Assembly (NCBI GenBank): GCA_017523785.1
Contig: JAFWVX010000025.1
Coordinates: forward strand, 9,255-73,254
Direction of reading: 5' to 3'
DNA from: Lachnospiraceae bacterium
Lineage (GTDB): Bacteria; Bacillota; Clostridia; Lachnospirales; Lachnospiraceae
DNA length: 64,000 bases
Under the pieces are notes generated by a model. It did no database searches and had not been told where the DNA came from. It saw only the letters and a list, made by a program, of their open reading frames with translations. This document shows, one piece after another, positions 2,914 through 48,400 of this stretch (within the stretch, counting starts at the first letter, position 1; every line of letters starts with the position of its first letter). The translations under genes were made by a program, and so were the position numbers.

Positions 2914-3156
2914 ATGAGTAAAAAAGTTGCTAAGAAAAAAACCACTACTAAGACTGTAAAGAAAAAAGCAGCAAAAACAGCTAAGGCTAAGAAAAAGGCA
3001 ATAAAGGCTAATAAACCTGTTAAAAGAACAGAGAAAAAGGTTTCTAAAAAAGTAAAGGCAAACTCAAAGAAACCTTCTACAAAGCCTAAAAAGTCTGGTG
3101 CAAAAGAGAAAAAAGAGGTTCCAGCACCAAACCCATCAAAGTGGTTCTTTTTCTAA
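2914..3156 (+). CDS. Lys/Ala-rich highly basic protein (histone H1-like composition)
   Basis: AAGGAG lies 7 nt upstream of the ATG. The 80-aa product is dominated by K/A/T and ends in PSKWFFF. A hairpin plus T-run follows the stop. Confidence 0.6.
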   Translation: MSKKVAKKKTTTKTVKKKAAKTAKAKKKAIKANKPVKRTEKKVSKKVKANSKKPSTKPKKSGAKEKKEVPAPNPSKWFFF

Positions 3157-7016: not shown

Positions 7017-9522
7017 AAACATTTTACCAATAAATAGCAGAAAGAAAAAGCGGCCAATAAACCCAGTAATATTGGGCATTTTAGCGTTTTTAATTGCAGC
7101 AGTCGCTTTCAACATATATACATATAATAGACTTAGACCAAAAGAACTCTATTATATGGACACGCTCGATGCGACATTTCCGATAATCTACCAGGTGAGA
7201 AACAATAGAAAGATTAACGAGATGAGGGGCTTCGTGGACGAACGATATAATCTTGTATCAAATGATACGATAACGATGCTTGAGGCTGAGCGTAAACTTG
7301 AATTATTAATTAACAACAACCACAATATTATTAACTCACTCGAATACGAAGTTAGAGACAGGACAAGTAATAGTTTGCTAGAGAGAACTAAGATTGAAAT
7401 TTCTGAAGAGAACCGTGATAAGGAAAATGACGAGACAAAGGTAGTGCTCAACATTCAAAACTTGATAAAGCAAAATACTTCTTACCTGCTCACGATCAAA
7501 ATTAATATTAATAGAAGAAGTGCATACTACTTTACAAATATAATATATAGACCAAGAAACAAACTGGACGATGCAATAGCTCAGACCGAGTGGTTTACGG
7601 AGTTGACATTTGACCCAGTGACAGCCGGTGATTACGAAAAAGGTATCGTCAAATATCTCGAAACGAGTATCAACCGAGATATGAGGGAAATGCATACGAT
7701 CACATTGCAGCAGAGTTTTGAGCAGTTGACATTTGCAGACACAAAGATGAAAAGGGCGAGCGACTACTACTTTAGCATTTATCAGGCGCAGGAATACAGC
7801 TACACGATAGCGATAAACTACCTTACGAAAAGTGGAAAAGACTCTAAAAATGAGTATTTCATAAACCGTGATGAATATGTGCTAAGATGGGACGGAAAAA
7901 GATGGTATTTTATGAAGTTTACGAGGAGTACTGAAGAGCTTGTAAATCTTGAGGATAACCCGTTTAACGAGACAAATGACCGCTTTTATACTGGTGTCAC
8001 AAATCCTAATAATATAGTAAAAATCGAGTCAGAGAATAAAAAGTTTTTCGCCTTCTGCAAAGAGCGAGAAATTTATAGATATGATGTCGATACAAAAACT
8101 ATGACGAACATTTTCTCTTATCATATCCAGAGCAAAGAGACATTTGCAAATGTTGCGAAAGATTTCGCGATAAAACTTATGGATGTAAATGACAATGGCG
8201 ATGTGACTTATATTGTTTACGGCTACAACATGACGGGTCTCAATGAAGGTAACATGGGTATCGGCGTTTTCACATATCACTCTGAGACAAACGAGTCGGA
8301 GGAAAACATTTTTATTCCGATTTACACTACTTACCAAAGTTTGAAATATGATATTGAGAGACTCTGTGTTTATAAAAACAATCGACTGATTTTTAAGAGT
8401 TACAACAAAGTTTATTCTATAGATATTAACACAGCAGAAATCTTGACACTCGCTGACGGATTTGAAGAGACAAAGTTTGCCGCAAGTTCAAATAGTAGAT
8501 ATTTCGCATTTAACAACGACAAGGAAGATGTTTCAAAACACATAAACATTTACAACATCGAAGACGGTAGGGTAATCACAATTGATGCAAATGAAGGCGA
8601 AAACATCGAGGTTGTGACATTTATGAATGATGACCTCTTCTACGGAGTCTTCAGTGACGAAAATGTCTGGCGAGAAATCAACAAGGTGATAGGACGTCCG
8701 AGCCACGAGATACGAGTTATAAATGCGGTGACTGGAAAAGAGGATTTATTTAAGGAGAAAGACCGCTATCTCTACAATTTCGTTAATCAGCAAAATGTCC
8801 TTCGATATAACAAATATAAAAGAGAGGGAACGCACTACACCTATCTTACAAATGACGTTATAGTTAATAACTACTCTGCGGAAAATACAAATGTTTTCAA
8901 TTACCGAGAAGAACTGACGAAAGAAAAACTTAGGGTTGGATATTTTGAAATTCCGATGGAGAAAAACGATAAGCTTAGATATTCAAAGAGTGCGGGTGTT
9001 TCACGTAAGCAGGTTGAGGAGACCGCACTTGAATCTACCAATGAGCACGAGGAAACGCTCTACTATGTGTATGACAGCGGAAATTTAAAGGCGAAACTTA
9101 AGAACCTTTCAGATGGTATCAACGAAATCAGAGACAACTACGGTTACGTGAAACTTAATGATAGAATCACTTGCTACAACAGGGCGAACAAGGGAAATGT
9201 CTCGTACTTAAGACAGGCTGATAGCATACTTGAAAACCTTGAGGGTTTCGAGGAAAATGTCTATATAAAAAATAACGAAATACTTGTGATGAATGTTACA
9301 GGTGTTACTGAGAGAGATCTTGAATACTATATGAGCTTGAATGAGAAAATTGCGGTGTATAAACATGATACATTCCAGTTTTTTATAACGGGTTACGATA
9401 ATAATAACTATGTGCTAGAGTACGCAAATAAGGAAAGAATTTTGACACCGAGGGATGAGGTGCATGAGGCGGTGGTATTTGGGGGGTATGTGCTATTTGC
9501 GCAGCTTGAGAGCCTTGAATAA
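7006..9522 (+). CDS. Membrane-anchored 838-aa protein, unknown function
   Basis: Long ORF overlapping the DUF4446 stop by 11 nt. It has one N-terminal TM helix (ILGILAFLIAAVAFNIY). No motif was recognised. Confidence 0.7.
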   Translation: MKIRNILPINSRKKKRPINPVILGILAFLIAAVAFNIYTYNRLRPKELYYMDTLDATFPIIYQVRNNRKINEMRGFVDERYNLVSNDTITMLEAERKLELLINNNHNIINSLEYEVRDRTSNSLLERTKIEISEENRDKENDETKVVLNIQNLIKQNTSYLLTIKININRRSAYYFTNIIYRPRNKLDDAIAQTEWFTELTFDPVTAGDYEKGIVKYLETSINRDMREMHTITLQQSFEQLTFADTKMKRASDYYFSIYQAQEYSYTIAINYLTKSGKDSKNEYFINRDEYVLRWDGKRWYFMKFTRSTEELVNLEDNPFNETNDRFYTGVTNPNNIVKIESENKKFFAFCKEREIYRYDVDTKTMTNIFSYHIQSKETFANVAKDFAIKLMDVNDNGDVTYIVYGYNMTGLNEGNMGIGVFTYHSETNESEENIFIPIYTTYQSLKYDIERLCVYKNNRLIFKSYNKVYSIDINTAEILTLADGFEETKFAASSNSRYFAFNNDKEDVSKHINIYNIEDGRVITIDANEGENIEVVTFMNDDLFYGVFSDENVWREINKVIGRPSHEIRVINAVTGKEDLFKEKDRYLYNFVNQQNVLRYNKYKREGTHYTYLTNDVIVNNYSAENTNVFNYREELTKEKLRVGYFEIPMEKNDKLRYSKSAGVSRKQVEETALESTNEHEETLYYVYDSGNLKAKLKNLSDGINEIRDNYGYVKLNDRITCYNRANKGNVSYLRQADSILENLEGFEENVYIKNNEILVMNVTGVTERDLEYYMSLNEKIAVYKHDTFQFFITGYDNNNYVLEYANKERILTPRDEVHEAVVFGGYVLFAQLESLE

Positions 9523-9549: not shown

Positions 9550-10155
9550 ATGATAAACATAAAAATTAAAAATAGAATAATATTATTATTTATCACAGCT
9601 GTGCTTTTGTTTGCTTGCGATAGTAAGATTAAAAAGATTAACATTCACGGCACTTATAAAGGAACGGGAATGATGGGCTACGAGGCGGTTGTGGATGCGG
9701 GGACTATTACCATTTACTCTACAAGTTTTTTTGAGAAATCAGTTTACTGGTATGGGACTTGCAACTCTTATGAATTGGATTCAAATAATAAACTAATCTC
9801 TAAAAAACTTGATACTGGAAGAAGCAATAGTTGGTTCTCTTTTGATTTTGGAATGGATAGAAGCGGTGTGACTGAAAAAGAGATTTTATTTACTGACAAC
9901 TCTTTGACCTTCATCTATGATATGAGTGGCATGGCGATAAGTCAGGTGACTTTATATAAAGAAGGTAGCGAAAAGAAGCATAACGAATATGATTCAAATG
10001 CCGAGAAGGCTGACCCAAATTATGTTGAGCCAAGTAAGCCACTACCTCATGAAATTCCAAGAGGTCAAGAGGCGCCAACGACTGAGGCACCTACCGAAAA
10101 GCCAACCGAGAACCCAAATGTCACAGTGCCGGAGGGGAATAACTACTCTTTATAG
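9550..10155 (+). CDS. Lipoprotein with Pro/Thr/Glu-rich tail
   Basis: Signal peptide ending in the lipobox LLFAC and a low-complexity C-terminus (APTTEAPTEKPTENP). Confidence 0.7.
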   Translation: MINIKIKNRIILLFITAVLLFACDSKIKKINIHGTYKGTGMMGYEAVVDAGTITIYSTSFFEKSVYWYGTCNSYELDSNNKLISKKLDTGRSNSWFSFDFGMDRSGVTEKEILFTDNSLTFIYDMSGMAISQVTLYKEGSEKKHNEYDSNAEKADPNYVEPSKPLPHEIPRGQEAPTTEAPTEKPTENPNVTVPEGNNYSL

Positions 10156-10156
10156 G

Positions 10157-10217
10157 TTTTTAAAGTACACTTTAAAAAAATGAAAATTTTTAAGTTTTTA
10201 AAGTTAACTTTAAAAAC
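10157..10217. repeat. Two all-A/T palindromes
   Basis: TTTTTAAAGT-AC-ACTTTAAAAA (10157-10178) and the perfect 24-nt palindrome GTTTTTAAAGTTAACTTTAAAAAC (10194-10217). Confidence 0.7.
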
Positions 10218-10225
10218 TTGAAAAA

Positions 10226-10262
10226 ATAGGACTGACTAAATATCAAGGCCAGTCCTATTTTT
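10226..10262 (+). terminator. Intrinsic terminator
   Basis: ATAGGACTG (10226-10234) pairs with CAGTCCTAT (10250-10258), followed by a T-run. Confidence 0.7.
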
Positions 10263-10266
10263 ATGG

Positions 10267-10291
10267 AAAAAGTGGTGAAAGCCACTTTTTT
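10267..10291. terminator. Second, bidirectional hairpin terminator
   Basis: AAAAGTGG-TGAAAG-CCACTTTTTT, with an A-run before the hairpin and a T-run after it. Confidence 0.6.
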
Positions 10292-10292
10292 G

Positions 10293-10321
10293 TTGCGCAA
10301 AAATAGTTAATGTGGCATAAT
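10293..10321 (+). promoter_or_regulatory. Extended -10 promoter of the structured RNA
   Basis: TTGCGC (10293-10298), 17-nt spacer ending in TGg, CATAAT (10316-10321). Confidence 0.6.
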
Positions 10322-10325
10322 AGTA

Positions 10326-10526
10326 GTTGCGACATCAACTAAATATTATTATGGGGAAACTATGCCTAAATATAGTTTCTCTATCAACGAAATATCTCAC
10401 AAGAACTCATTTTTATAATGGTAAAAATGTGAGTTCTTGAACTAAAATCTTGTGAGATAGTTTAGTTGGTGTCGCAACCTGAGAGCTCGCAATTTTCAGT
10501 CGTAGCTTTCGGGCTGCGGCTTTTTT
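10326..10526 (+). ncRNA. Unclassified ~200-nt structured RNA (three-way junction) ending in an intrinsic terminator
   Basis: P1 is 19 bp: 10326-10344 with 10460-10478 (17 Watson-Crick pairs plus 2 GU). P2 is the hairpin 10356-10363/10372-10379. P3 is 10393-10399/10453-10459 and encloses the long hairpin 10400-10409/10430-10439. The terminator is GTCGTAGC-TTTCGG-GCTGCGGC plus T6 (10499-10526). Confidence 0.55.
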
Positions 10527-10558
10527 AGTTTTAAAAAATATTAAGGAGGAGGAACTTC

Positions 10559-10735
10559 ATGAGTAGGAGTTTATATAATTCACATGTAAGAAAAATAACA
10601 AAAATGAGTGACGGAACATATTTTTCACAAAGATATTCTGTTGGGTTTTATCTTTTTTTAGAATTATGCAAATTGTTTTTTAAATTATTATTCTTTTGGA
10701 TTTATATTCCATACAAGCTTTTGTCTAAAAAATGA
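10559..10735 (+). CDS. 58-aa small protein with hydrophobic C-terminal helix (below the ORF-track cutoff)
   Basis: Strong SD AAGGAGGAGG (10543-10552) lies 6 nt before the ATG. Product: MSRSLYNSHVRKITKMSDGTYFSQRYSVGFYLFLELCKLFFKLLFFWIYIPYKLLSKK. Confidence 0.5.
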   Translation: MSRSLYNSHVRKITKMSDGTYFSQRYSVGFYLFLELCKLFFKLLFFWIYIPYKLLSKK

Positions 10736-10827
10736 TATATCTTATCTTATTTAAATATTAAGAAAATAATTAAATTAAGAAAATTATAGTCAACTATAAT
10801 AATATGATATTTTGTTGGATGTGACAA

Positions 10828-11073
10828 ATGAAAAAAATTAAAAAGACGATTATCGTTGCAAATGACTCAAGAAAATCTGGTGTATCCGTAGTAGGGAGAG
10901 CTGCAATTGGAGCAATAGTTTTAGGTCCAATAGGATTATTAGCAGGGGCGACAGGTAAAAACAAACAGACAACAACTTTTCAAATCATTTATGAAGATAG
11001 CACACAAGAGACAAAAGTTGTGAACAACAATTCTAAAGAATTTAAGGAGTATTGTAAATATTTATATGAATAA
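10828..11073 (+). CDS. Small protein with Gly-zipper-like hydrophobic segment
   Basis: 81-aa ORF containing GRAAIGAIVLGPIGLLAGATG. Overlaps the next gene by 8 nt. Confidence 0.55.
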   Translation: MKKIKKTIIVANDSRKSGVSVVGRAAIGAIVLGPIGLLAGATGKNKQTTTFQIIYEDSTQETKVVNNNSKEFKEYCKYLYE

Positions 11074-11869
11074 ACAAAAAGTTATATTATTTATTACGTT
11101 AATTGCAATATTTATGAGCACTAAGTTATACGCTGGTAAGTGGGAACAAGATGAGTTTGGGTGGAAGTACCAAAATGATGATGGGACATACCAAAATGCG
11201 GGGTGGTTTAAAGATGAAGATAACAAGTTTTATTATTTTACTGCATTTGGATATGCAATGACAAACACAGTTACACCAGATGGTGCTTTAGTTGGTGCTG
11301 ACGGAGCATGGATGTTCGATTATAACTTGGCAAGTTTATTGACCGAAACTGAGGACAAACCAAATTATAAAATTGTGGCAGAAGGTTTTAAAACATATTA
11401 TGCAGGAACCGATTTTCCGGCAGGTGACTATATGTTGTTTGTACATCATGAAAACAATACACTTGGGACGGGGTATTATAATTTGGGCAACAAAAAACCA
11501 ATACAAGACATTATTCCATTCGAGCATAGATTTACATATAACTCTATAGTAAGAATTTATGATTATGAGTTTATTAATCTTGTGAACTGTGAGATGATAC
11601 CTATTTCGTTAGTGCAACGACTTAATTATAATAAAGCAAATATGTATTGGGGAGGTTATAATTTAGCACCCGGGCAATATATGGTTGAAACAATTGATAA
11701 ATCAAAAAATGGAGCTATTACATATTTGTCAATACCAAGAGATAATGGCTATCATACAAAATCAGACACACCAGGATGGATAGAAGATGTAAAGTTTAGA
11801 CAATATGGTATTTTGAATGTTCAAGCTGGCCAATATATTAAGTTATATAATTGTAGAATAGTAAAATAA
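11066..11869 (+). CDS. Secreted protein with cell-wall-binding (CW_binding_1-like) repeat
   Basis: Signal peptide, then GWKYQNDDGTYQNAGWFKDEDNKFYYFTAFGYAMTN, which is typical of choline-binding/glucan-binding repeats. Confidence 0.7.
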   Translation: MNKQKVILFITLIAIFMSTKLYAGKWEQDEFGWKYQNDDGTYQNAGWFKDEDNKFYYFTAFGYAMTNTVTPDGALVGADGAWMFDYNLASLLTETEDKPNYKIVAEGFKTYYAGTDFPAGDYMLFVHHENNTLGTGYYNLGNKKPIQDIIPFEHRFTYNSIVRIYDYEFINLVNCEMIPISLVQRLNYNKANMYWGGYNLAPGQYMVETIDKSKNGAITYLSIPRDNGYHTKSDTPGWIEDVKFRQYGILNVQAGQYIKLYNCRIVK

Positions 11870-11893
11870 TTTTAATATTGGGAGAAATTGAAT

Positions 11894-12343
11894 ATGTTCA
11901 ATAGAAAGGATTTAATTTATATATTATGCTACAGTATAATATTGTTATTTGGATGCAATAAACAAAAAGATGTGTTACATGAAAAAAGCGCGTTATTAGT
12001 CGAAAATAAAATGAAAGAAGTTGCACAAGAAGAAGAAAATTTGAAAGAGTATGCAACAGACAAAAAAGAAGTGTTAGAAAAAATAGGAATAGACTTAGAA
12101 AAATTATTGACTGAAGATATATTATTAAAATATGGTGAAATTGGTAAGTATGGAAAAGAAGAGATATATGATGGCGAAAAATATATAAGTTATTATATAC
12201 CGGCAGGGGAGTATACTGTTACAAATATGTCATATAAGTTGTCTTGTGTTTTTATAGAATCAAATAGAATGTATAAAAATAATGACGGGTATTGGGATAA
12301 TGATATTATTAAAAGTATTTGTTTAAAGAAAATGAATGAATAA
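11894..12343 (+). CDS. Lipoprotein, unknown function
   Basis: GGGAG lies 8 nt before the ATG at 11894. Lipobox LLFGC. Confidence 0.65.
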   Translation: MFNRKDLIYILCYSIILLFGCNKQKDVLHEKSALLVENKMKEVAQEEENLKEYATDKKEVLEKIGIDLEKLLTEDILLKYGEIGKYGKEEIYDGEKYISYYIPAGEYTVTNMSYKLSCVFIESNRMYKNNDGYWDNDIIKSICLKKMNE

Positions 12344-12359
12344 CAAATATTTGTCATAG

Positions 12360-12725
12360 GGGAGGATATGCATATTTCGTTGTCAATGAATTCACATGTA
12401 AAATTTTGTAATACTGGTAAGATAATAGAATAAATTGATGGAGGTCGGATTCTAGAGAAGAGACTCTAAAAGATGTTATAACCAAACTTTAACCATATTT
12501 ATTTAAAAGAGTGACAGGGCTTTTGGTTAAAGATTTTGAACTTCTTGTATCACTCGGATTATTTAAAGAAGGCATAATGAATGAAGCAGTATATAAATTT
12601 AGAAGATATGAAGATTCAAGTCTGTCTATACTGGCATAGATAGACATATCAATGAAAAGGTTGGGCTATATTCTACAGTGCTTACTAGGAAAGAGTATGA
12701 GATGATAGTTAATCAAGACTAAAGT
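12360..12725 (+). pseudogene. Decayed gene remnants (frame-shifted fragments)
   Basis: Only short open pieces in different frames, e.g. ...KDFELLVSLGLFKEGIMNEAVYKFRRYEDSS... then RFKSVYTGIDRHINEKVGLYSTVLTRKEYEMIVNQD. A terminator hairpin follows at ~12729-12757. The family was not recognised. Confidence 0.3.
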
Positions 12726-12795
12726 AAAAAACAAGTCGCCTTCGCAGGTGGCTTTTTATTGTAAAGACTCGACTTTATCTGTTCGATATACGAAA

Positions 12796-12831: not shown

Positions 12832-13179
12832 ATGTTTAGCGAGTTTGTACAAACAAAAATATTTACAAAAAAATGGGATACATTAGGTTACAATGATGAT
12901 GATTTAAGACTCTTAGAAATTGATTTGTTAGAAAAAGGTGATAAGTATCCTGTTATCAAAGGAACTGGCGGATTAAGAAAATGTAGGTTGAAATTACAAA
13001 ATAAAGGGAAAAGTGGTGGCAGCAGAGTTTTATTTGTGAATTTTGTTAAACTCGAAACTATATATTTGATAATGGTGTATAGTAAAAATGAGCAAGAAGA
13101 TATTTCAGAAGAAGATAAAAAAGATTTTAAGAAGTTAATTATTGAATTAGAAGAAGAGGTAAAGAAAAAACATGAGTAA
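12832..13179 (+). CDS. RelE/HigB-type toxin (DUF1044/PF06296-like)
   Basis: Motif GTGGLRKCRL....GKSGGSRVLF...IYLIMVYSKNEQEDIS. The toxin-first gene order is typical of HigBA. Confidence 0.85.
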   Translation: MFSEFVQTKIFTKKWDTLGYNDDDLRLLEIDLLEKGDKYPVIKGTGGLRKCRLKLQNKGKSGGSRVLFVNFVKLETIYLIMVYSKNEQEDISEEDKKDFKKLIIELEEEVKKKHE

Positions 13180-13483
13180 GATGGGTGAAGAAATAAAACA
13201 AGGGCTTAGAGAAGCAATTGAAGATGCAAAAAAGCATAACTTAAAAAGGAACTATATTTATATTGAGCCAGTAAAAAAATATACGCCTAAAGAAGTTAAA
13301 CAAATTCGAAATAAAGTTGGATTAACACAAAAACTATTTGCGAGTTTCTTAGGGGTTTCTAATAAGACTATAGAGGCATGGGAAGAAGGTATAAATACAC
13401 CATCTGGTGCTGCAAGTAGAATGCTAACTATAATTGAAAAAGATAAAAATGCACTAAAGAATTATCCATTTGTCGTAGCTTAA
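13172..13483 (+). CDS. XRE-family HTH antitoxin (HigA/MqsA-like)
   Basis: GLTQKLFASFLGVSNKTIEAWEEGINTPSGAASRML. Overlaps the toxin stop by 8 nt. Confidence 0.85.
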   Translation: MSKMGEEIKQGLREAIEDAKKHNLKRNYIYIEPVKKYTPKEVKQIRNKVGLTQKLFASFLGVSNKTIEAWEEGINTPSGAASRMLTIIEKDKNALKNYPFVVA

Positions 13484-15081: not shown

Positions 15082-16077
15082 TTATAAATTATGAAAAAAT
15101 GTTAACAGACGTTTGTAATCATCAAGCGAAAGATTCTCCGCCCTTACATTTTCATCAAAGCCAAGTTCTAAAAGGGCATTAGATACAATATTTTTATCGT
15201 AACCAGCGTTGGTTAAAGAATTTAAAAGCTTTTTTCGCCTTTGAGCGAAAGAGGCTTTTATTAATTTGAAAAGTTGGTCGTAATCGGGCTCGTAAAACTC
15301 GCCCGTGCGAGGGCTCGCAGTGCTCGCCCCTACAGTTGTCGGGCTCGCAAACTTCGCCCCTACAGGTGCTGATCCCGCAGTGAGGTGCTTTTTGAAATGG
15401 ACGACTGCAGAGTCGACCTTTGGTTTAGGGAAGAAGCAATCTTTTGAGACTACCATTATCATTTTTGTGTCGGCAAAATAATTGCAAGCAAGAGTCAATA
15501 TGCCATAATCTCTACCGCCTGGAGTTGCTACAATTCTTTCTGCTACTTCTTTTTGGACCATTAGGGTCATTTCTGATACATATGGATTTTGTAGAAGAAT
15601 GTTGATAATGGGAGAGGTTATATAGTAGGGAAGATTTGCTACAACTTTGATATGAAAACCGGACTCGCAGTGCTCGCCCCTACGGGTCTCATTGGGCTTG
15701 CAGTGCTCATCCATATAATTGGCATTTGCCCCTACTTGGGACGACAAAATGTCGTCCCCTACATTTGAAAATTCATCTAGTATGGTTTGGAAGTCGAGCT
15801 CCATGAAATTGGCATTTATGATAGTGACATTTTCATATTCTTTGAGATTACTTTTGAGAAGTGGAATTAAACTCTTGTCGATTTCTACAGCGACAACATG
15901 GCGAGCCCTATCGCATAGACATCTGGTGAGAGCACCATTTCCAGGACCAATCTCAAGAACGAAATCATCTTTAGTGATTTTACTTTCATCAGCGATATCC
16001 TCAAGCAAAAATTCATCTATGATAAAATTTTGACCGAGCGAATGTTTAAATTTAAAATTTTTATTATTTGTTTTCAC
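15082..16077 (-). CDS. rsmA: 16S rRNA dimethyladenosine transferase RsmA/KsgA carrying two in-frame repeat insertions
   Basis: Motifs LGQNFIID, EIGPGNGALT, ANLPYYITSPII and FAQRRKKLLNSL. At 331 aa it is longer than usual because of two GC-rich insert blocks. Confidence 0.85.
   Translation of the reverse strand: MKTNNKNFKFKHSLGQNFIIDEFLLEDIADESKITKDDFVLEIGPGNGALTRCLCDRARHVVAVEIDKSLIPLLKSNLKEYENVTIINANFMELDFQTILDEFSNVGDDILSSQVGANANYMDEHCKPNETRRGEHCESGFHIKVVANLPYYITSPIINILLQNPYVSEMTLMVQKEVAERIVATPGGRDYGILTLACNYFADTKMIMVVSKDCFFPKPKVDSAVVHFKKHLTAGSAPVGAKFASPTTVGASTASPRTGEFYEPDYDQLFKLIKASFAQRRKKLLNSLTNAGYDKNIVSNALLELGFDENVRAENLSLDDYKRLLTFFHNL
15286..15370 (-). repeat. GC-rich hairpin repeat, 3 tandem copies inside rsmA
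   Basis: Plus strand reads GGGCTCGTAAAACTCGCCCGTGCGA / GGGCTCGCAGTGCTCGCCCCTACA / GGGCTCGCAAACTTCGCCCCTACA. These encode ...APVGAKFASPTTVGASTASPRTGEFYEP... Confidence 0.85.
15661..15763 (-). repeat. GC-rich hairpin repeat, 3 further copies inside rsmA
   Basis: GGACTCGCAGTGCTCGCCCCTACG; GGGCTTGCAGTGCTC..(insert CCATATAATTGG)..GCCCCTAC; GGGACGACAAAATGTCGTCCCCTACA (perfect 8-bp hairpin). These encode ...NVGDDILSSQVGANANYMDEHCKPNETRRGEHCES... Confidence 0.85.
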
Positions 16078-19421: not shown

Positions 19422-19487
19422 AAAATGTAAGGGCTATAATAAAATGTAGGGGCAACAATAAAATGTAGGGGCGAGCACTACGAGCCC
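19422..19487 (+). repeat. 19-nt tandem units ending in a full GC-rich hairpin repeat (inverse orientation)
   Basis: AAAATGTAAGGGCTATAAT / AAAATGTAGGGGCAACAAT / AAAATGTAGGGGCGAGCACTACGAGCCC. Confidence 0.8.
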
Positions 19488-38689: not shown

Positions 38690-38763
38690 GGCCCGGTGGC
38701 TCAGATGGTTAGAGCGCTGCCCTGTCACGGCAGAGGTCAGGGGTTCGAGTCCCCTTCGGGTCG
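38690..38763 (+). tRNA. tRNA-Asp (GTC)
   Basis: Manual cloverleaf: acceptor GGCCCGG/TCGGGTC, anticodon loop CTGTCAC, T-loop TTCGAGT. CCA is not encoded. Confidence 0.85.
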
Positions 38764-38791
38764 CAGTGGGCGGATAATATCCGCCCCTACA
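38764..38791 (+). repeat. GC-rich hairpin repeat copy between tRNA-Asp and tRNA-Tyr
   Basis: ...CAGTGGGCGGATAATATCCGCCCCTACA. Hairpin GGGCGGA/TCCGCCC plus the family tail CCCCTACA. The shared TCGCAGTG head overlaps the tRNA-Asp 3' end. Confidence 0.7.
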
Positions 38792-38798
38792 ATTTTAT

Positions 38799-38880
38799 GG
38801 ATGGGTTCCCGAGTGGCCAAAGGGGGCAGACTGTAAATCTGTTAGCATCGCTTTCGGTGGTTCGAATCCACCCCCATCCA
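38799..38880 (+). tRNA. tRNA-Tyr (GTA)
   Basis: Acceptor GGATGGG/CCCATCC, anticodon loop CTGTAAA, long variable arm, T-loop TTCGAAT. CCA is not encoded. Confidence 0.85.
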
Positions 38881-38889
38881 AGGTTTTTC

Positions 38890-38962
38890 GGGGTGTTAGC
38901 TCAGCTGGGAGAGCATCTGCCTTACAAGCAGGGGGTCATAGGTTCGAGCCCTATACGCCCCA
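38890..38962 (+). tRNA. tRNA-Val (TAC)
   Basis: Acceptor GGGGTGT/ACGCCCC, anticodon loop CTTACAA, T-loop TTCGAGC. CCA is not encoded. Confidence 0.85.
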
Positions 38963-38986
38963 TTTTTCTAAAAAAACCCATATTAT

Positions 38987-39060
<74 letters not shown>

Positions 39061-39416: not shown

Positions 39417-42400
39417 ATGAAAGAGCAATTTAAAAAACTCATATCTATTATTTTAATAGTCGCAATGACTATTACTAATAATGGTTTATTTGTTTTGGCT
39501 GACAGTGTTGATAATATTGTCGACCAGAGTTTGAGTACTGCTCAAGAAACTCCAAACTATTATTACTATGAGGAAACAACGACAGTTGAAGATTATCAAG
39601 CATACCTTGAGTCAGAAAATCCAGGTGTCTATGACGAAGAAGTAGAGACAAAGGACTATGCTGACAAAAGTGAAGAGGATGAGATTGAATCATCTGAGAC
39701 TTTTGATGTGGAAGAAACCAGTAAAGAAGAATCAGATGAAGTAGAGGATACAAGTGAATCTACAGAGAACGAAGATGAGGAGGAAACAACTACTGTTCGT
39801 GAGGAAACAGAGAAAGAGACAGTAAATGAAAAAGGGGAAGCTGCAACAGAATCTAACGCTGAAGAAATAATAGAGCAAGATGAGGAAGAAGAGATTGCAA
39901 CAAGTTCAGAAATAGAAACTGAAGAGGTGATAGAAGAGAATATAGCAACTGAGTCAGAAATTTTACCTGAAGAAGAAAACAATGTTGAAAACCTTGCGAC
40001 AGAATCAGATATTAACAAAGTAGTTGCGACAGAGTCTGAGTTAGAAGAAAATATTTCTACAAATTCTGAAGCAATGATTGAAAAAGAAATTATCGTTGCT
40101 ACAGTTTCAAAAATATCTTGGAAGGTTAAAAAAGTTTTGATTGCGACATTTGCATCGATAAATGTTAAAGCAAGCGAGACTGAGAAAGAAAGAGTGGCAA
40201 GACTTGCAACTTATGCAAATGTTATCATCGTAAATGATAAAGGTGATGAAAAGATATTTAAAGTAAATCTCAAGTGGAAATTATTTAAGAAATATGATGT
40301 AAACGCAAGATCAGATAAGCAAGAAGCTCCTATACCAAAAGAAGAGTGGAGAAAAACTCTTAAGGTAGATGAGTTCATAAAAGATCAAGAAGAAGTAGTG
40401 GTTTCAACTAGAAATATCGCATTAGTTGAAGAGAGAGTTAAAGAAGAAAATGCAAAATATGAAGATAAAGAATTCGTAGTTAAGTTCCAAAACGATAGTG
40501 AAACTCAAGAAACTACAGTAAACCCAGCTGTAGAAGAAAGCAATGAAAACCCTGCTGAAAATATAGAAACAATAGAAACTACAGTAGTTATTGATGAGAC
40601 TGAAGGTGAGACTTATGAAGAAACTATTGAGACAATTATAGAGACAAGTATTGAAGAGACAAGTAATGAGATTATTGAAGAAGCAACTAAGGAAAATGAA
40701 ATTGATGAACCTACTGTTGCTGGATTTAATAATTCTGAAGACATCGCAAGTAGCAGCGATGTAGAAGAAAGTAAAGAAGTAGAGACAGAAGAAACAGAAA
40801 CTGAAGAAGTAGAAACAGTTGAGTCACAAGAAGAAAGTGAATCAGTAGATCAAAATGAAGAAGTAGAAATTCAAGAAGAACTTGCAACAGCATCTACATT
40901 AGTTGAAGAAGAAATCTCAAATGTTGATACTATGACAACAAATGGTGAAGAAATTTCTGATGAGACAATTGACTATTATGATTTACAAACAATTTATCTC
41001 TATAAAGTTGATGTACCTGCACTCGGTGATGAGATAATAGATATTATCAACAAAGAAAATTCTAATGTTGAAGAGAAAGATGAGACTGAAGAGTTGCTTG
41101 AAGAAAAACCAGAAGGAATAATCGGCGGACTCATGAAACTCTTTGGACTTGGTTCAACTGAAAGTAATGAACAAAATGATGTAGAAGAAACTAAGGAAGA
41201 AGAATTAGAAACATATTTAGAAAATGCAGAGGTTGATATCATTGATGAATCAAGGCTAGAGCCAATGGTTGCAGAGTTTGATGCACATCTTTTAGGAAGT
41301 GGTGCAACTCACGAGCAACATCAGATTTCAGTTTTTGTAAATGGCACAGTTCTGACACCAGACAATATTTTCAATTCTGTAATCGGTGGCGATGAATCAG
41401 ATATGTTAGATTTATCTGAAAATAATAGAAGAATTAAAGCAACAGGGTCAAACATATTCATTGCGGGAACTTATTATTTGCCAAGCGATATAAAAATATC
41501 AAATCAGTGGATAGTTGAAAAAAATAATACTTTGACACTTTGCTTAAATGGGCATGATGTGAAATTTGCAACAGCTGGTTGTGTAAAAGGTGAAGGAAGA
41601 GTGGTTGTATGTAACTGTGGAGGAAGCGCAACTATTTCAACTGATGGACCTACATATAATTGGCATGACAAGTGGTATGCAAGTACATCTGAGACATATA
41701 CTAAGTGGAATGAGCATTCGTTAATAGCAGGAGATGAAGTTGGAGTATATGCAAATGATAATAATATAACATTTTCAAATGTTGTAATTAAGAATCAGTA
41801 TAACGGAAGAAAAGCCGCAGCACAGATGGAAAACACGGAAATAGATGAAGCAGAGTTATCAGGTGATGGTTCTATTCTTTGGGGTAAAAAAGAAATACAA
41901 GTTTATGGAGCAAAATTCGCAAATAATAGAGCAACTAGATCAAATGGTGTTGCTGTAAATGCACAACTTGGAAAGATGACTCTTGAAGACTGCTCGTTTG
42001 TTGATAATAGAAATTTAACAAATAGAGGTGGAGCAGTAGCATTTAACCCTAAAGCAACTATTATAAATAATTGTGTGTTTAAAGATAATATTTCATTTAC
42101 TAATGGTGGGGCACTTTTTGGCAGGTCATATACAAATTCTGTTGAAAGTGTTGAAATTGGAACAAAGATTTCAAAGAGTACATTTGAAAATAATGTAGCA
42201 CTGATAGATGGCGGAGCTATATTTATGGACTATCTTTGCGAAAAAGGAGTGACAATAGAGGGAACGGAAGCAGATAAGGTAGTATTTAAAAATAATTATG
42301 CCGGTGCATCAGGTGGTGCAATATCAGTTAGACATATGAGATCGGTAGATGGACAAGAAGAAAATGCATACTCATATGAAGATCCTACAAGTAGGGGAAG

Positions 42401-45400
42401 GCTTTTAAATATTAATTATGCAGTATTTGAAGGAAATGAAGCAAAGGCACTAATTATAAATAAAAATACAGGAGCCATATCAGAAAATCCCCTTTCTTTA
42501 AAGGAAAATTTTGGTGGTGCAATAAATTTAAATTCTCAGACGATAGTATATAGAACATTCCCTACAGACAGTCCAGTAAAAGAAGTAAATATTAAAAATA
42601 GCTCGTTTAAGAATAATATAGCTAAAGGATTTAAACTTGATATTAAATCAAAAGATATAACAGGAAACTTTACAGGTGAGACATTAGCGACATACTATGC
42701 AGGAAATGCAGGTGGTGCAATTTATGCAAACAAGTTAAATAAGATAAACATAGAAGATTCAGAATTTACAGATAATAAATCTATGACAGGAGCAAACCTT
42801 TGTATAAAAGAAGCTTCGGTAAGTTTTATTGGTGGAAAATTATTAAATGGTAAAGCATATAATAATAGTTATAGTGCATCAGAGTTTTATAAGAGAGTAG
42901 TATCACCTGGCGGTGGTGCAGCATATCTTATGAACGATGCCCATCTTTCTATATCAAAAGAAACTAAGATAGAAACAAATGAAAATGCATTTTATCTTGA
43001 TGGAGGCTCTATTGATTTAGGGGCTGGAACTGTAACAGGAAATACAGGAGAATACTTAATCGGATATGCAAACTATAAGTCAAACAGAATATTGTTTAGT
43101 GGTGTAGATATTAAAGATCATACATTTAATGAGATGAGAAAGGACTATACTTCTACAAGATCTGACGCTGCAACAGGTAAGAGAAATTTTAAAGATGGAT
43201 ATTATCAGACATCTTATATTTCATTTAAAGGAACAAACCTCATAACAAATAATAAAAGAAACTTCTACACAAAAACTGGAACAACATACACAAGTAAGAA
43301 TGAAGAAGCAAATATTGTTATGACAGCATCTGATTCTAATTTACAAATGGATTTGAGCAAATATTTATTTGATGTTCCATTCACAGACCAAGATGTAAGT
43401 CAGGGAATTGGACTTTATTATGACTTTGACCCTGACCCAAATAAAGATCAGATTACCGCATATGATAGATGGACTTATGAAAATGTAAAAGTTATAGACG
43501 AGGGTGGTCTTTGGACAAACTACTTTGAGATAGATAACTCAAGTAAAGGTGAGTGGGCAGAAAACTGGAAGTTTTATATAGAAAAGAATGAGATAAGAAT
43601 GAGTCCGCACATTGTGCAGGTTAAGTTTGACTCCTATATAGAAAATGTTCCAAGAATAAAACCACAGTTCTACAATTTTAGAAAAGGTGGTGGAACGACA
43701 TTAAAAATTGCAACCCCAACAGAGATTGTAAGAAGAGACATTCATACACCAGGAAAGACTTTGCTGGGATTCCTTGGAGTAGACAAATCAAAAGATGTCG
43801 AAAATACAAAATATGATATATGGGATTTTGATAAATGTGAAATTGATCCATCAAGAACTGATGGTGATGTAATAGAGATAATCTTAGTATATACAGATGA
43901 TACAATAAAAATAAAACCATGTGGATGTGAAAATGGTAAAGCTTGTGCTCATGAAGGAGTGAGCATTAATCACTCTGATAGAGGAATTGGAACAAGTGAA
44001 GAAGAAAATAGATATTTAAATTACATTGAAGTAGCAACATACCCTCAACTTGCTTATAAATATAAGGGGAGAAAGACTCAGTATGTATTGAGTAAAGACC
44101 TTAGACTTACTGGAAATCAAGCAAAAGATTATATTGATGGTGGTATGGTTCTTAACCTAAATGGAAAAACTCTTACATATGATACAAGAGAGAGTAACGA
44201 TTCACACATCTTAGATACTACAGGAACAGATGTTATGCATACTGCAAATGACTCAAAGATTATGATCTGTGGTATAGCAACACCAGGAGCAGTAGAAAGA
44301 GGTAAGATAGTAGCTAATGGAACACATAAAGGAGCATTTATATATAGCAATACTGATGTATATCTAAGCTACCTTGACATTATGAATGTATCAGCGGTGG
44401 ATGGTTCTGATAAAGCATTTATACAAAGCGCAGATACAAATATCAATACTTATGTGAATACAAAAGAAGTAACATTTACTAACATAAATTTAAAATCAGA
44501 TTTAATTAATGCCGGTTCAAGAGTTGTGTTATCAGACACAAAGATTTCAAATGCTGAATTAGATGGTAGTGTTGTAAAACTTCGTGCTGAAGCAAACAAG
44601 GAAACCGCTTTTGAATTATTAAACACAGATATTACAGGACTTACCAAAGCAAATGCACTTCTTGGTTCGGATTTAACTAGTCCAACAGGAACAAAAGTTA
44701 GAATATCTACATCAAATATTACTAACAGTGTATTTGAAACTCAGTTAATTAAATTGGATGATTCTTCAACAGGTGCTAACTCTGAATTAAAACTTCAAGG
44801 CGAAGTAAAGATAAATGGAAACAAATTAAATTCTGGTTCAGTATTTATTTCAAATGCAGCAACAAATGGAAGCGACGTATTTGGTGTAAGCGTAGATGAC
44901 AGAATTGAAATTAACAACAACACTCTTCCACATAGCGATGGAGTAACACTTCTTACACTTTACCAGAAGTCAGTTACATTTAAGGGTGATGTATCACTCA
45001 CTGGAAATAAGACTGTTGCAAGTGGTAGAGCAACAGAAAAAGTTAGTGCTGTTAAAGCAGGAAATAATACAAGTGTGTTACTTGATGAAGTTGCTATTAG
45101 AGTAACTGATAACTTAACAAAGTATGAGTGGTATGCTGAAAATACAGACGGAACCACACAGACATTTGAGAAAGCAATATTTACTCAGGTTGCTGGAACA
45201 AAACTTAAGGCTTCAGATTCTATAATAAAGATTAGACTTGCTGTAAGTGACGAGGATGAGTCACAAAAGATTTATGAAAATTGGTCAGCAAATAATATTA
45301 TAGGAGAAAAGGAAGCAGAGGCTACATTCTTAAGAGATGATTCTTATTCTGAAGATGAAGTTGAAGATATCTACAAGAAAGGAAAAGATGAAGAAACTTC

Positions 45401-48400
45401 TGATATCTATATGGGATCAACTTATGTTGCAGTTAGATATAGACTATATAATTATAAGGCAAATGTAGATGAGAGGCTAGATGAATCAGCAGGTTATACA
45501 CAAGCAGCAATACAAAGAGTAGAACCTGATGTATATACTTTACTTGATACACCACAATATAAGTTTGATTTTTCAAGAACTTCAGTTATGTGGGAAGCAT
45601 TTGCATACAGAAAATCTGATGGAACTTATGATTATTCTGATGAAAGATTATACCCAGAGAAGACAACACATATAGGAATTAGATCAACAAAGAGTGTATT
45701 GGTATCAGGATATATTTATAACTATAACAATAAGCGACATGTGCATGAAGGAAATATAGAGTTATGGACTGAGGCAAGAAATGAAGGACATTTACAAGCA
45801 ACTAACTCATTTGTCTTCTTGCATAATGACTTAGAAATTACTAGACCACTTAAGTATAAACCAGAGAAGACTTACCACCTATGTTTAAATGGACATAAAC
45901 TCATAGTTAATAATAGTATAGAATGGTTTAAGTCAAGCACTTGTAAATTGATAATTTGTGATTGCCAGAAGACAGGAAGCATTGTCCAAAATAGTGGCGA
46001 AATTGCAAGTAAGTTTATAAATATAAGTGGTGGAGAAATTGATATTAGCGATATCACATTTGGACCATTTAAGAATGTAAATAATACAGAGTTTGTAAAT
46101 GTAGCAGAGACTGTTAAAGTAAACATTGATAATGTAGTGGTAAAAGAAATCAATATGGATAACTTTGTAAAGACTGATAATGCATTTATAAATATTAAGA
46201 CAAATAATTTAGCAAGTATAAGTAATGTGACATTTAGATCAAATAAGATGTTATCTAATGATAAAACCAATGCAATATTCACAGTAGATAACAAGAGCGG
46301 TGGAAGCATTAACATTGATGGTATAAGTTTAGAGAGTAATGAAGTAAACGCTGACACATCTAAAAATATAAATGGATCAGGATATGTAGTTAAAGTTAAT
46401 GGATATGATAGAGTTACACTCAACTCGCCAACATTAAAATCCAATAAGGTTGTTTTAGGTGCCCCTATACAGATAAACGGTAATAGTTCAGCAACATCAT
46501 ACAATAAAATTCTTACCATGACGAATGTTACATTTGAAGAAAACCAAAAGAATTTTGTAAATAGTATGAAACTTGAAGACCAAGCAAAAGATGGAATATC
46601 TGCTAACTATGCAAGTATTAATTTCAATAACATAATCATAAATGGCGGATCTTTTAAAGGAAATAGATTCAATTCAAATGCAGCAACTTTAGCAGGCGAC
46701 GATGGTGCAGTAATTGATTTAACAAACTATGATGCAAATCTTACAGTTAAAGATGTAATGTTTGATGGAACTGGAACAACTGCAAATGATAATGTATTTG
46801 GTATGTTGATTCTTGATAAAGGCGATGACTTGTTTGAGAATGTAACAATTACAAATTACAATATGGGATCAACTGCTTATATGCTTCTTGCAAAAGGAAC
46901 TTCAAATAGTCCTGCTGGAACATATGTGGGTAGAACAACATTTAGAGGAACAACAAAGTTTACAAACAACAAAGCTAAATCAATGGTCAGAGTTGAGAAT
47001 GAAAGAAACGATGTCAACAATGATTATGAAGGATTATTGTTGATTGATGGAACAACATTTACTAACAATACCGCAAATAATCCAAAAGTAACTGGTCTTA
47101 GCGGATTGATAGAAATTGACTCAAATACTATAGTAGTAGCAAGTGGAGCTAATATAGCTAAGACAACAGGAATTGCAGTCTATATCGCTACAAGTGAGTT
47201 TAGAATGTTTAACTCAGAGATTAGTGGCGGATTAGGAAACGATGCGGCTGTATATGTAAAAGATGCTGGAAGACTTGTCCTTGGTGATAAAGTTATAGTA
47301 AAAGATAATAAGATAAATATTTATCTTGACGGCGATGGCAGCATCAATGCTCAAATAAAAGCAATGGATGGACATCCAATATCAGCAACATCAGAAATTT
47401 ATATTACGGTTCCAGACATAGAATATAATTTCTTTAATCAATGGGGAAATAATTATATAAAGAATTATAATTATCATCAAGGCAACACATATGCATATTT
47501 ACCAAATGATTTATTTAAACTTGATGCTGCAATAGCAAGCAACAGAAAGATATATATTAAAGGTGATATTGCTTCAGGAAACCAAGAGTTGTGGGTATCA
47601 TCTAACCAAGCAACATATGAATATGCAACACTTATATTCTTTGATAAAGATATAAAAGGACCTAAAGAGATAGCAAGACAGTATATAAAGATTGGACAAA
47701 AGACAAAACTTGATAGAGTGCAAGTTGATTATATCTCAACATTAAGTCAAGTGTGGATGACAGAAGCAAATGGTGATAAACCAGAAGAACAAACTATGTG
47801 GAGACTTTACAGCAATGGACAATATCACGACTTTGAAGTAGTTAATTATGAAGCAGGAAAAACATATTATGCATATTTAACAAAGAAACATGTTCATAAG
47901 ATTTGTGGACCTGATTCACTTGTGCCTTGTGGTCCAAATCACGCAGATGGAATAGCTCACACAGTCGACTATGAGTTCTTACAAGTAGGAACTAATGATA
48001 ATATAATAATTGAAGCTTCAAGAAGTAACTATATAGGACTTTCAAATAATTTGACTATTAATCAAGCAGCACTTAACTCGTTAAGTAATAGAGAAATAGT
48101 ATTCTGTATAAATGGATATACTTTGACATTTGAAAAAGATGCAATGCTTAATACAAGTCACAGTTTTGCACTTATTAACTGTGAAAGCACAGGTGTTGTA
48201 ACAGTCAATGAAAATGAAAAAACAACCAACTCACTTATTAGTGCAAGTGGGGCGGGAAATACATTTAGTTTATATAATATTAATTTCCATAATTTTGAGA
48301 CAGAAGCATCTGTAATAAAAGTTCAAAATGTAAAAACAGTAAGTGAGAATGTAAAGTTTACAGAGATTGAATCAACAGCACCTAATGGAATATATGATAT

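Follow-up and report, generated by a model that had tools for sequence, protein, structure and literature searches.

A window of 64,000 nucleotides (nt) from a Lachnospiraceae bacterium (contig JAFWVX010000025.1 of assembly GCA_017523785.1) contains a single copy of an RNA element of ~200 nt, which occupies positions 10326–10526 of the + strand and comprises a three-way junction, a single-stranded tail and an intrinsic terminator, T1, as delineated by the significance of its fold and by its covariance-model score. The element follows, in this order, rsmG, parA, parB, a DUF4446 gene and genes encoding proteins of 838 and 201 amino acids (aa). On its other side lie four co-oriented open reading frames (ORFs) of 58, 81, 267 (with a choline-binding repeat) and 151 aa (10559–12343, + strand), which start 32 nt after T1, then a RelE/helix–turn–helix (HTH) gene pair and Hsp20, and finally ksgA and trkAH on the opposite strand. 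Judging from sequence comparison, the element represents a narrowly distributed RNA family, not catalogued before, that is linked to a chromosomal slot carrying mostly restriction–modification (R-M) genes.

The predicted minimum free energy (MFE) of the + strand between 10320 and 10530 is −79.7 kcal/mol, compared with −41.2 ± 4.0 kcal/mol for 200 dinucleotide shuffles (z = −9.6), none of which folded as well (0/200), while the − strand of the same region reaches only −57.5 kcal/mol, 22 kcal/mol poorer than the + strand. The closing helix P1 (10326–10344/10460–10478) consists of 19 bp, two of them G·U, and is also apparent as an inverted repeat; together with the long bulged arm P3 (10393–10459), which has a large bulge on its 3′ side, it lies exactly where the initial annotation, made from the window alone, had placed it. 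Both the base helix of this arm, P3a (10393–10404/10448–10459), and its apical helix, P3b (10408–10416/10421–10429), are defined by alignment as well as by folding. The small hairpin that completes the junction, P2, is also present, but it is slightly larger than the 10356–10379 originally drawn, extending over 10351–10364/10371–10384 with a conserved core at 10354–10363/10372–10381. P1 is followed by the single-stranded tail CCTGAGAGCTCGCAATTTTCA (10479–10498), within which the segment CCUGAGAG is found and in which one position varies, one variant having a G at the last A. No tRNA or tmRNA was identified at the element by ARAGORN, and there are no tandem repeats in 10293–10526. The frame starting at ATG 10351, within P2, was considered as a coding ORF and rejected, having 29, 10, 7 and 24 codons across variants and no Shine–Dalgarno (SD) sequence; since this short frame is not conserved, the RNA is taken to be non-coding.

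Eight distinct sequence variants of the element were found, all of them in ruminant or gut metagenomes or metagenome-assembled genomes (MAGs) of rumen or gut Clostridia: those of the window, L001, L017, L018, L019, L020/L021, L023 and L028. Contigs with identical neighbouring proteins yielded near-identical copies and one copy of 85% identity (L001) in a different downstream context. Exact-word scans located the element in only two GTDB species genomes, with one match each (L017, a Lachnospiraceae MAG from goat reticulum, and L018, an uncultured Clostridia MAG), and in one JGI metagenome contig (L019), and contigs encoding homologues of the upstream 201-aa protein added L020/L021, L023 and L028. 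Exact-word scans for three blocks gave no genuine match to a viral contig, the match in L039 lying inside a 2279-aa ORF without a covariance-model match and being attributed to chance, and blastn searches of phage and plasmid collections with the element returned no match. A covariance model built from the variants (R1) scores 231 bits at the window copy and 220–242 bits in the seven other variants.

All eight variants fold individually into the same architecture. In a model-guided alignment (A6), which was used for the pair counts, 98.6% of 503 helix cells are standard pairs, a proportion that falls to 38–46% when the partners are slid by 1–3 columns; 11 pairs are changed on both sides, and the observed values were reached by none of 500 shuffles. 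The structure proposed from the window is therefore borne out by conservation and covariation in related genomes. Compensatory changes affect ten of the 13 pairs of P3a and give rise to five distinct base helices, all of 12–13 bp. On the other hand, P1, P2, P3b, the tail and T1 are nearly invariant: of the 17 pairs modelled for P1, 16 never vary, with 100% of cells paired and no compensatory change, and three pairs of P2 switch from G–C to G·U, which is tolerated on the + strand only. Indeed, all one-sided changes convert G–C or A–U to G·U on the + strand, with no A·C, and none of them would be tolerable on the − strand; since the wobble pairs are all G·U on the + strand, the selected structure is that of the + strand RNA. 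The alignment indicates that the RNA fold is real and is kept by compensatory mutations. Covariation is restricted to P3a, and with eight close variants the conservation of the junction and loops is inseparable from recent common ancestry or horizontal transfer.

The element is preceded by two hairpins with T runs (10222–10262 and 10271–10292, + strand), recognizable in the sequence as inverted repeats, which would insulate the unit from the upstream 201-aa gene. Both had been annotated as terminators, and although the hairpins and their T runs are plainly visible, neither was called by the terminator scan. The annotated promoter is likewise present on the + strand, with a −35 hexamer TTGCGC (10293–10298), a 17-nt spacer and an extended −10 box TGgCATAAT (10313–10321), from which transcription is predicted to start at ~10326–10329. 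A consensus scan did not flag it, the −35 hexamer matching at only three of six positions, while the L018 version, which has the TG, was called. The box TGn(T/C)A(T/A)AAT is found at a constant distance from P1 in all eight variants, whereas the −35 hexamer and the DNA upstream of it are of four unrelated types, each variant having its own hairpin and T run just before the −35. A −10 box that stays fixed next to unrelated upstream DNA is what one would expect if selection acted on a transcript that begins at the foot of P1. At the other end, the GC-rich terminator originally described was recovered by the scan (10498–10521, with the T run extending to 10526): T1 has a stem formed by 10498–10507 and 10511–10521, is conserved in all variants and is the only terminator-like site reported on the + strand between 9500 and 11500. 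Three further observations concern the promoter region. Palindromic operator-like words with TTGCG/CGCAA coincide in part with the −35 hexamer or lie ahead of it, namely TTGCGCAA in the window (10293–10300) and TTGCGAAATTT-4 nt-AAATTTTGCAA near the −35 in L018 (5768–5794, − strand), L019 and L023. Two AT-rich, self-complementary tandem units of 38 nt directly follow the stop codon of the 201-aa gene in the window (10149–10224). A natural deletion of 33 nt in L003 (3739–3947) and L010, both from the window's own species, takes out the −10 box together with most of the 5′ strand of P1 but spares the 58-aa ORF and the genes around it.

Two competing folds are predicted for the 3′ end of the RNA. 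The RNAalifold consensus omits T1 and draws a 13-bp helix between the tail sequence CCUGAGAGCUCGC (10479–10491) and the 5′ half and loop of T1, GUCGUAGCUUUCGGG (10499–10513). This helix and T1 are mutually exclusive, and both are invariant, so that no covariation signal is possible for either. Computed locally, the antiterminator helix has a free energy of −15.7 kcal/mol, compared with about −12 to −14 kcal/mol for T1 (about −12 kcal/mol for the 8-bp T1 stem evaluated), and it is the local MFE structure in five of the eight variants. Because its 5′ strand is made first, the antiterminator should pre-empt T1 unless the tail is occupied. The switch suggested in the initial annotation, in which the 5′ strand of P1 would pair with the 5′ arm of T1 (8 bp, two of them G·U), is conceivable but not supported, since it would have to displace the 19-bp P1; the tail is by far the better partner.

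A possible occupant of the tail is found in the bulge of P3, where GAGTTCT (10431–10437, + strand) is complementary to AGAGCTC of the tail (10482–10488) and is 96% paired in the alignment. The corresponding bulge of L017 and L019 reads GGGCUUA, which amounts to three one-sided substitutions, all of them compatible with pairing. The resulting pseudoknot between bulge and tail is tentative, since seven base pairs could arise by chance. In the window variant, most of the GAGUUCU bulge is paired inside an extended P3.

A second terminator, T2, starts ~20–30 nt 3′ of T1 in six of the eight variants (L001, 3966–4012; L017, about 7062–7110, − strand; L018, 5462–5508, − strand; L021, about 2996–3040; L023, 6525–6571; L028, 8441–8488) and is absent from the window and from L019, the single terminator of which resembles a T1/T2 recombinant. 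T2 aligns to positions 150–204 of the RNA profile and is therefore a diverged copy of the 3′ strand of P1 with a short tail and a terminator; its fold, at about −25 kcal/mol, is a 17-bp hairpin with a U tract behind it. A relay from T1 to T2, in which the freed 3′ arm of T1 would capture the 5′ arm of T2, was considered and found to be unsupported, as the T2 hairpin remains the MFE structure with the antiterminator enforced. The word TTGCGA, as found near the −35, recurs within P1, the tail and T1/T2.

All copies of the RNA occupy one variable slot after the parB–DUF4446–838-aa–201-aa gene series, and the first gene after the RNA is co-oriented with it in eight of eight variants. In six of them this gene is an R-M DNA methyltransferase: L001, L017 and L023 carry MmeI_Mtase/Eco57I/T5orf172 genes (type IIG-like according to PADLOC), L018 has a split Dcm with an HNH nuclease (type II) and L019 and L028 have type III Mod and Res, while the L021 contig ends before the cargo. 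The window variant is the only one that heads non-R-M genes. It nevertheless contains, at 12448–12734 (+ strand), sequence left over from the 3′ end of the T5orf172/type IIG-like gene (855 aa in L017) found behind the RNA in L017 and L001 (88% nucleotide identity by blastn; no intact frame), indicating that the present small ORFs displaced an earlier R-M cargo. To call the RNA an orphan, as was initially done, is therefore misleading, since in relatives it heads R-M operons of three types. Likewise, the 58-aa ORF (10559–10735, + strand) with its strong SD sequence AAGGAGG does lie directly behind T1 as annotated, but it is misleading as a partner: the same RNA precedes unrelated genes, including these R-M operons, and so is not a regulator specific to that ORF. 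A tblastn search of plasmids with the first cargo gene gave only matches of <50% identity from unrelated taxa.

Distant relatives in which the 201-aa gene is directly followed by ksgA–trkA–trkH have no RNA according to the covariance-model search, which assigns the RNA to the variable insertion slot and shows that it is not a housekeeping gene. In L023 and L020/L021 toxin–antitoxin genes intervene between the 201-aa gene and the RNA, showing that the RNA stays with the cargo side and not with the fixed flank. Furthermore, the gap between RNA and cargo can be too small for a separate promoter: it measures 32 nt in the window, where it contains only the SD sequence, and in L001 the ATG lies 4 nt after the T run of T2.

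The RNA has also been exchanged horizontally. Its ~155 ‘constant’ positions are 91–97% identical between variants, compared with 71–97% for the neighbouring 201-aa gene, and the two do not vary together: the window and L001 have 201-aa genes of 96.9% identity and only 45% identity in the variable part of the RNA, whereas L018 and L023 have flanking genes of 74% identity and RNAs of 96.5% identity. Similarly, RNA of the L018 type precedes Dcm/HNH, MmeI-type and type III cargo, and that of the L017 type precedes MmeI-type and type III cargo. The variant of the RNA is thus uncoupled from both flank and cargo type, as expected of a module that passes between strains and species and has breakpoints on either side of it.

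Taken together, these features suggest that a new leader/attenuator RNA of narrow distribution heads a slot for defence genes, mostly occupied by R-M systems; we favour this reading tentatively and would grant it a little under an even chance. The extended −10 promoter would start a transcript at the foot of P1, which would fold into the three-way junction of P1, P2 and the long P3, after which the invariant 3′ tail would choose between two partners. Pairing of the tail with the 5′ half of T1 would form the antiterminator and allow transcription to continue into the cargo genes; if another partner, perhaps the GAGUUCU bulge of P3 or a bound factor, engaged the tail, T1 would form and a stable RNA of ~200 nt would be released. 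The unit may in this way supply the slot with a promoter and with an attenuator that keeps toxic cargo low, possibly in a conditional manner, and T2 would serve as a fail-safe terminator where R-M genes follow. Transcription, read-through feeding the cargo, and a regulated choice with its regulator are what we infer from the sequence features. A leader is supported by the position of the RNA, which always directly adjoins the cargo in the same orientation, by its absence from genomes that lack the island and by the lack of room for another promoter in the window and L001. The one variant without R-M cargo, that of the window, is also without T2 (as is L019) and sequesters the bulge in P3. The 33-nt deletion of promoter and P1 in one strain of the window variant also fits a leader.

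Several observations weigh against this leader/attenuator. T2 is still the MFE structure when the T1 antiterminator is enforced, and, being strong, it leads one to expect little read-through into the R-M genes where it is present; a strong T2 agrees equally well with a self-contained RNA gene and with a fail-safe. The near-complete constancy of the sequence, which extends to both strands of a 17-bp helix, is not usual in leaders and hints at a sequence-specific partner. In several loci, 85–320 nt of repeat-rich DNA lie between T2 and the start codon, where a separate promoter could fit, and co-orientation is weak evidence, since nearly all genes of this origin-proximal region lie on the + strand. 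The proposed pseudoknot involves seven base pairs and three one-sided changes, and the covariation is concentrated in one helix because there are only eight variants, from one clade.

Some of these observations point to a stand-alone, trans-acting small RNA (sRNA), acting by base pairing or protein binding and residing at the edge of a recombination hot spot, for which T1 and T2 would be tandem insulators and the invariant tail and loops would be functional; we consider this less likely than the leader, though its main rival. At the sequence level the element does have the marks of an independent unit, with its own promoter and conserved extended −10 box, an upstream insulating hairpin, T1 and, in six of eight variants, the very strong T2. 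The greater constancy of the RNA relative to the 201-aa gene, with both strands of P1 unchanged, the single match in each of the two GTDB species genomes, the heterogeneity of the cargo and the space for a cargo promoter beyond T2 in several loci are all compatible with such an sRNA. However, a dedicated sRNA terminator has no need of the isoenergetic competitor that T1 possesses, the first cargo gene always comes directly after the RNA and in its orientation, also where toxin–antitoxin genes part the RNA from the fixed flank, and the next gene of the window and L001 has no space for a promoter before it. Moreover, no convincing target complementarity was found, a scan of neighbouring DNA for duplexes with the tail giving only moderate matches to repeats resembling repetitive extragenic palindromes (REP-like repeats), and the deletion shows the RNA to be dispensable in one strain. 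The two readings are not exclusive, since a terminated leader could also act in trans, and the original framing of the element as either a leader or a stand-alone sRNA is still apt.

A further version of the leader, which we hold to be distinctly unlikely, makes the RNA a true sensor, that is, a riboswitch-like or a protein- or RNA-responsive attenuator gating one strong promoter into the R-M/defence cassette of the slot; possible signals would include methyl-donor status, DNA damage and phage infection. A classical metabolite riboswitch is not indicated by the sequences, given that the RNA is nearly invariant, including both strands of P1, and that a strong second terminator follows in six of eight variants. 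An arrangement in which the element lies between a promoter and tandem terminators, ahead of operons of 3–6 kb, and in which its sequence is invariant and P1 encloses a core of two hairpins, also recalls processive antitermination RNAs such as HK022 put or EAR, which would modify their own RNA polymerase to ignore T1, T2 and the terminators within the cargo operons. This has very little probability in our view, as there is no similarity to the Rfam put or EAR models and the antiterminator helix already accounts for the bypass of T1. Decoupling of the RNA phylogeny from the flank, and the independent shuffling of RNA variants and cargo types, might instead reflect an element acting as DNA, a homology anchor or recombination site with inverted repeats and TTGCGA-like words for the exchange of R-M cassettes, in which transcription would be incidental. 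T2 as a partial duplicate of the 3′ end, the T1/T2-like terminator of L019 and the ability of the strand to fold well also as DNA (z = −9.8) agree with this, but compensatory changes keep intramolecular helices, one-sided changes are G·U-compatible on one strand only, and the −10 box and U-tract terminators are kept in register. With, in addition, no recombinase within the loci, no repeat of the 3′ end beyond the cargo and no contig in which the P1-flanked segment is inverted, a DNA-level role appears quite improbable. Scarcely credible, finally, is an RNA partner of a defence system, either retron-like (msr/msd) or a type III antitoxin-like RNA before a leaky terminator and a toxic gene. The topology, with an end-to-end helix, a small hairpin and a long variable hairpin, resembles retron noncoding RNA, and the order of promoter, RNA, terminator and toxic gene within a defence island resembles toxIN; nevertheless, no reverse transcriptase and no ToxN/AbiE-like gene is present in any locus, the RNA has no tandem repeats and the same RNA precedes three mechanistically different types of R-M system, so that gene content largely refutes this reading.

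Other features of the slot were noted. A gene for a RelE-family toxin overlaps one for an HTH/MqsA-like antitoxin in the window (12832–13483), and this pair lies after the cargo in the window and before the RNA in L020, L021 and L023. A pair formed by an HTH_31 gene and an M78-peptidase gene (capH/capP-like according to PADLOC), usually followed by DUF4417, is found in L017 (908–1820, − strand), L018 (2060–2948, − strand) and L040–L047, and recurs beside R-M systems of these rumen Clostridia, whether or not the RNA is present; it was rejected as a co-evolving partner, since the L028 pair is unrelated to those of L017 and L018 and six loci bearing the module have no RNA. In L028, a segment of ~225 bp (8488–8712) with long inverted repeats at its ends, resembling a miniature inverted-repeat transposable element, separates T2 from the type III mod gene; one of its ends is also found in L017 and L019. 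The REP-like repeat, with the core GTAGGGGCGAG and often arranged as two units of ~27 nt ending in GAGCCC, is over-represented in the window, with four matches (15323–15333, 15353–15363 and 15673–15683 on the − strand; 19465–19475 on the + strand) against 0.12 expected, and is also found in L017–L027; in several loci copies of it border the RNA module, and three of those in the window lie inside the ORF called for ksgA. Elsewhere in the window, a single ORF of 6233 aa (39417–58118) is preceded by a cluster of four tRNA genes (38690–39060).

R-M systems are toxic if mis-expressed and are known to be controlled by C proteins, promoter methylation and antisense RNAs. A leader/attenuator of the kind favoured here would, if confirmed, be a portable and different way of taming newly acquired defence genes, in which the RNA head is retained while type II, type IIG-like and type III systems are swapped behind it; were it in addition a true sensor, it would be the first case of R-M/defence islands having an RNA-based control module of their own, one that stays constant while the cargo is exchanged. 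Even as a plain sRNA, it would represent a new, covariation-supported RNA family from the rumen microbiome in which, unusually, one helix covaries freely amid about 150 positions that hardly vary. The RNA would also provide a handle for finding such slots in uncultured Clostridia.

The absence of any recognizable RNA class, which the initial annotation had stated, is upheld by Rfam 15 (4227 models), in which no family reaches its gathering threshold at the element, the only matches of that rank being four tRNAs elsewhere in the window. At E ≤ 10, the best match within 10100–10800 scores 23.9 bits against a threshold of 48 and lies on the wrong strand, and nothing credible was found in L028 either; a full-text literature search returned no description of such an RNA. 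In size and in possessing its own promoter and terminator the element is comparable to the 6S, signal recognition particle (SRP), tmRNA, T-box and further housekeeping or leader RNAs of Firmicutes, but none of these matches at E ≤ 10, the RNA is absent from related species without the island and a three-way junction takes the place of the central bubble of 6S RNA. Elements that act as DNA were compared as well. An inverton was rejected, given a single orientation in all ~20 contigs and eight variants and a promoter that lies outside P1, as was a tRNA-like attB site, the only extra copy of the 3′ end (T2) lying ~20–30 nt after T1, with none beyond the cargo and no integrase in the loci; an integron attC site was also considered and rejected.

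Closer likenesses are found among defence-associated RNAs. The retron msr–msd RNA shares with the element a length of ~200 nt, paired 5′ and 3′ ends, a small hairpin followed by a long, locus-variable one and a location in a defence island, but there is no adjacent reverse transcriptase in the eight loci and the RNA ends in an intrinsic terminator. The type III toxin–antitoxin system toxIN has the same order of promoter, RNA, terminator and potentially toxic gene, and the terminator could set the ratio of RNA to gene product; the RNA described here is, in contrast, devoid of tandem repeats, and its loci have R-M cargo and no ToxN-like endoribonuclease. In acr–aca operons, a promoter inverted repeat and a structured RNA motif in the 5′ untranslated region precede variable cargo, with a conserved HTH regulator at the end of the operon, and the RNA motifs are short hairpins that block the ribosome-binding site (PMC13551039). 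Both share a design in which a constant regulatory head, with an RNA motif immediately downstream of the transcription start, is followed by variable, horizontally acquired cargo (PMC13551039), and an HTH gene on the 3′ side adds to the likeness in L017, L018 and L028; on the other hand, the RNA of the present loci is a 150-nt junction with terminators, the HTH–M78 pair is not conserved with it and the window has no such pair.

The comparison that comes nearest is with attenuation leaders and riboswitch platforms. The differences are that the RNA contains no known aptamer, that its P1, being invariant and 17–19 bp long, is not a marginal switching helix, that it is followed not by a metabolic regulon but by horizontally swapped R-M systems, and that most variants have a second, apparently constitutive terminator; no ligand is implied. 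Like these leaders, the RNA is promoter-proximal and co-oriented with the genes that follow; P1 closes its structured 5′ domain, the segment after it can pair with the 5′ half of T1 or with another partner, and the alternative states are near-isoenergetic. As modelled here, it would belong in kind with promoter-proximal structured RNAs that have a conditional terminator, a mechanism that is plausible.

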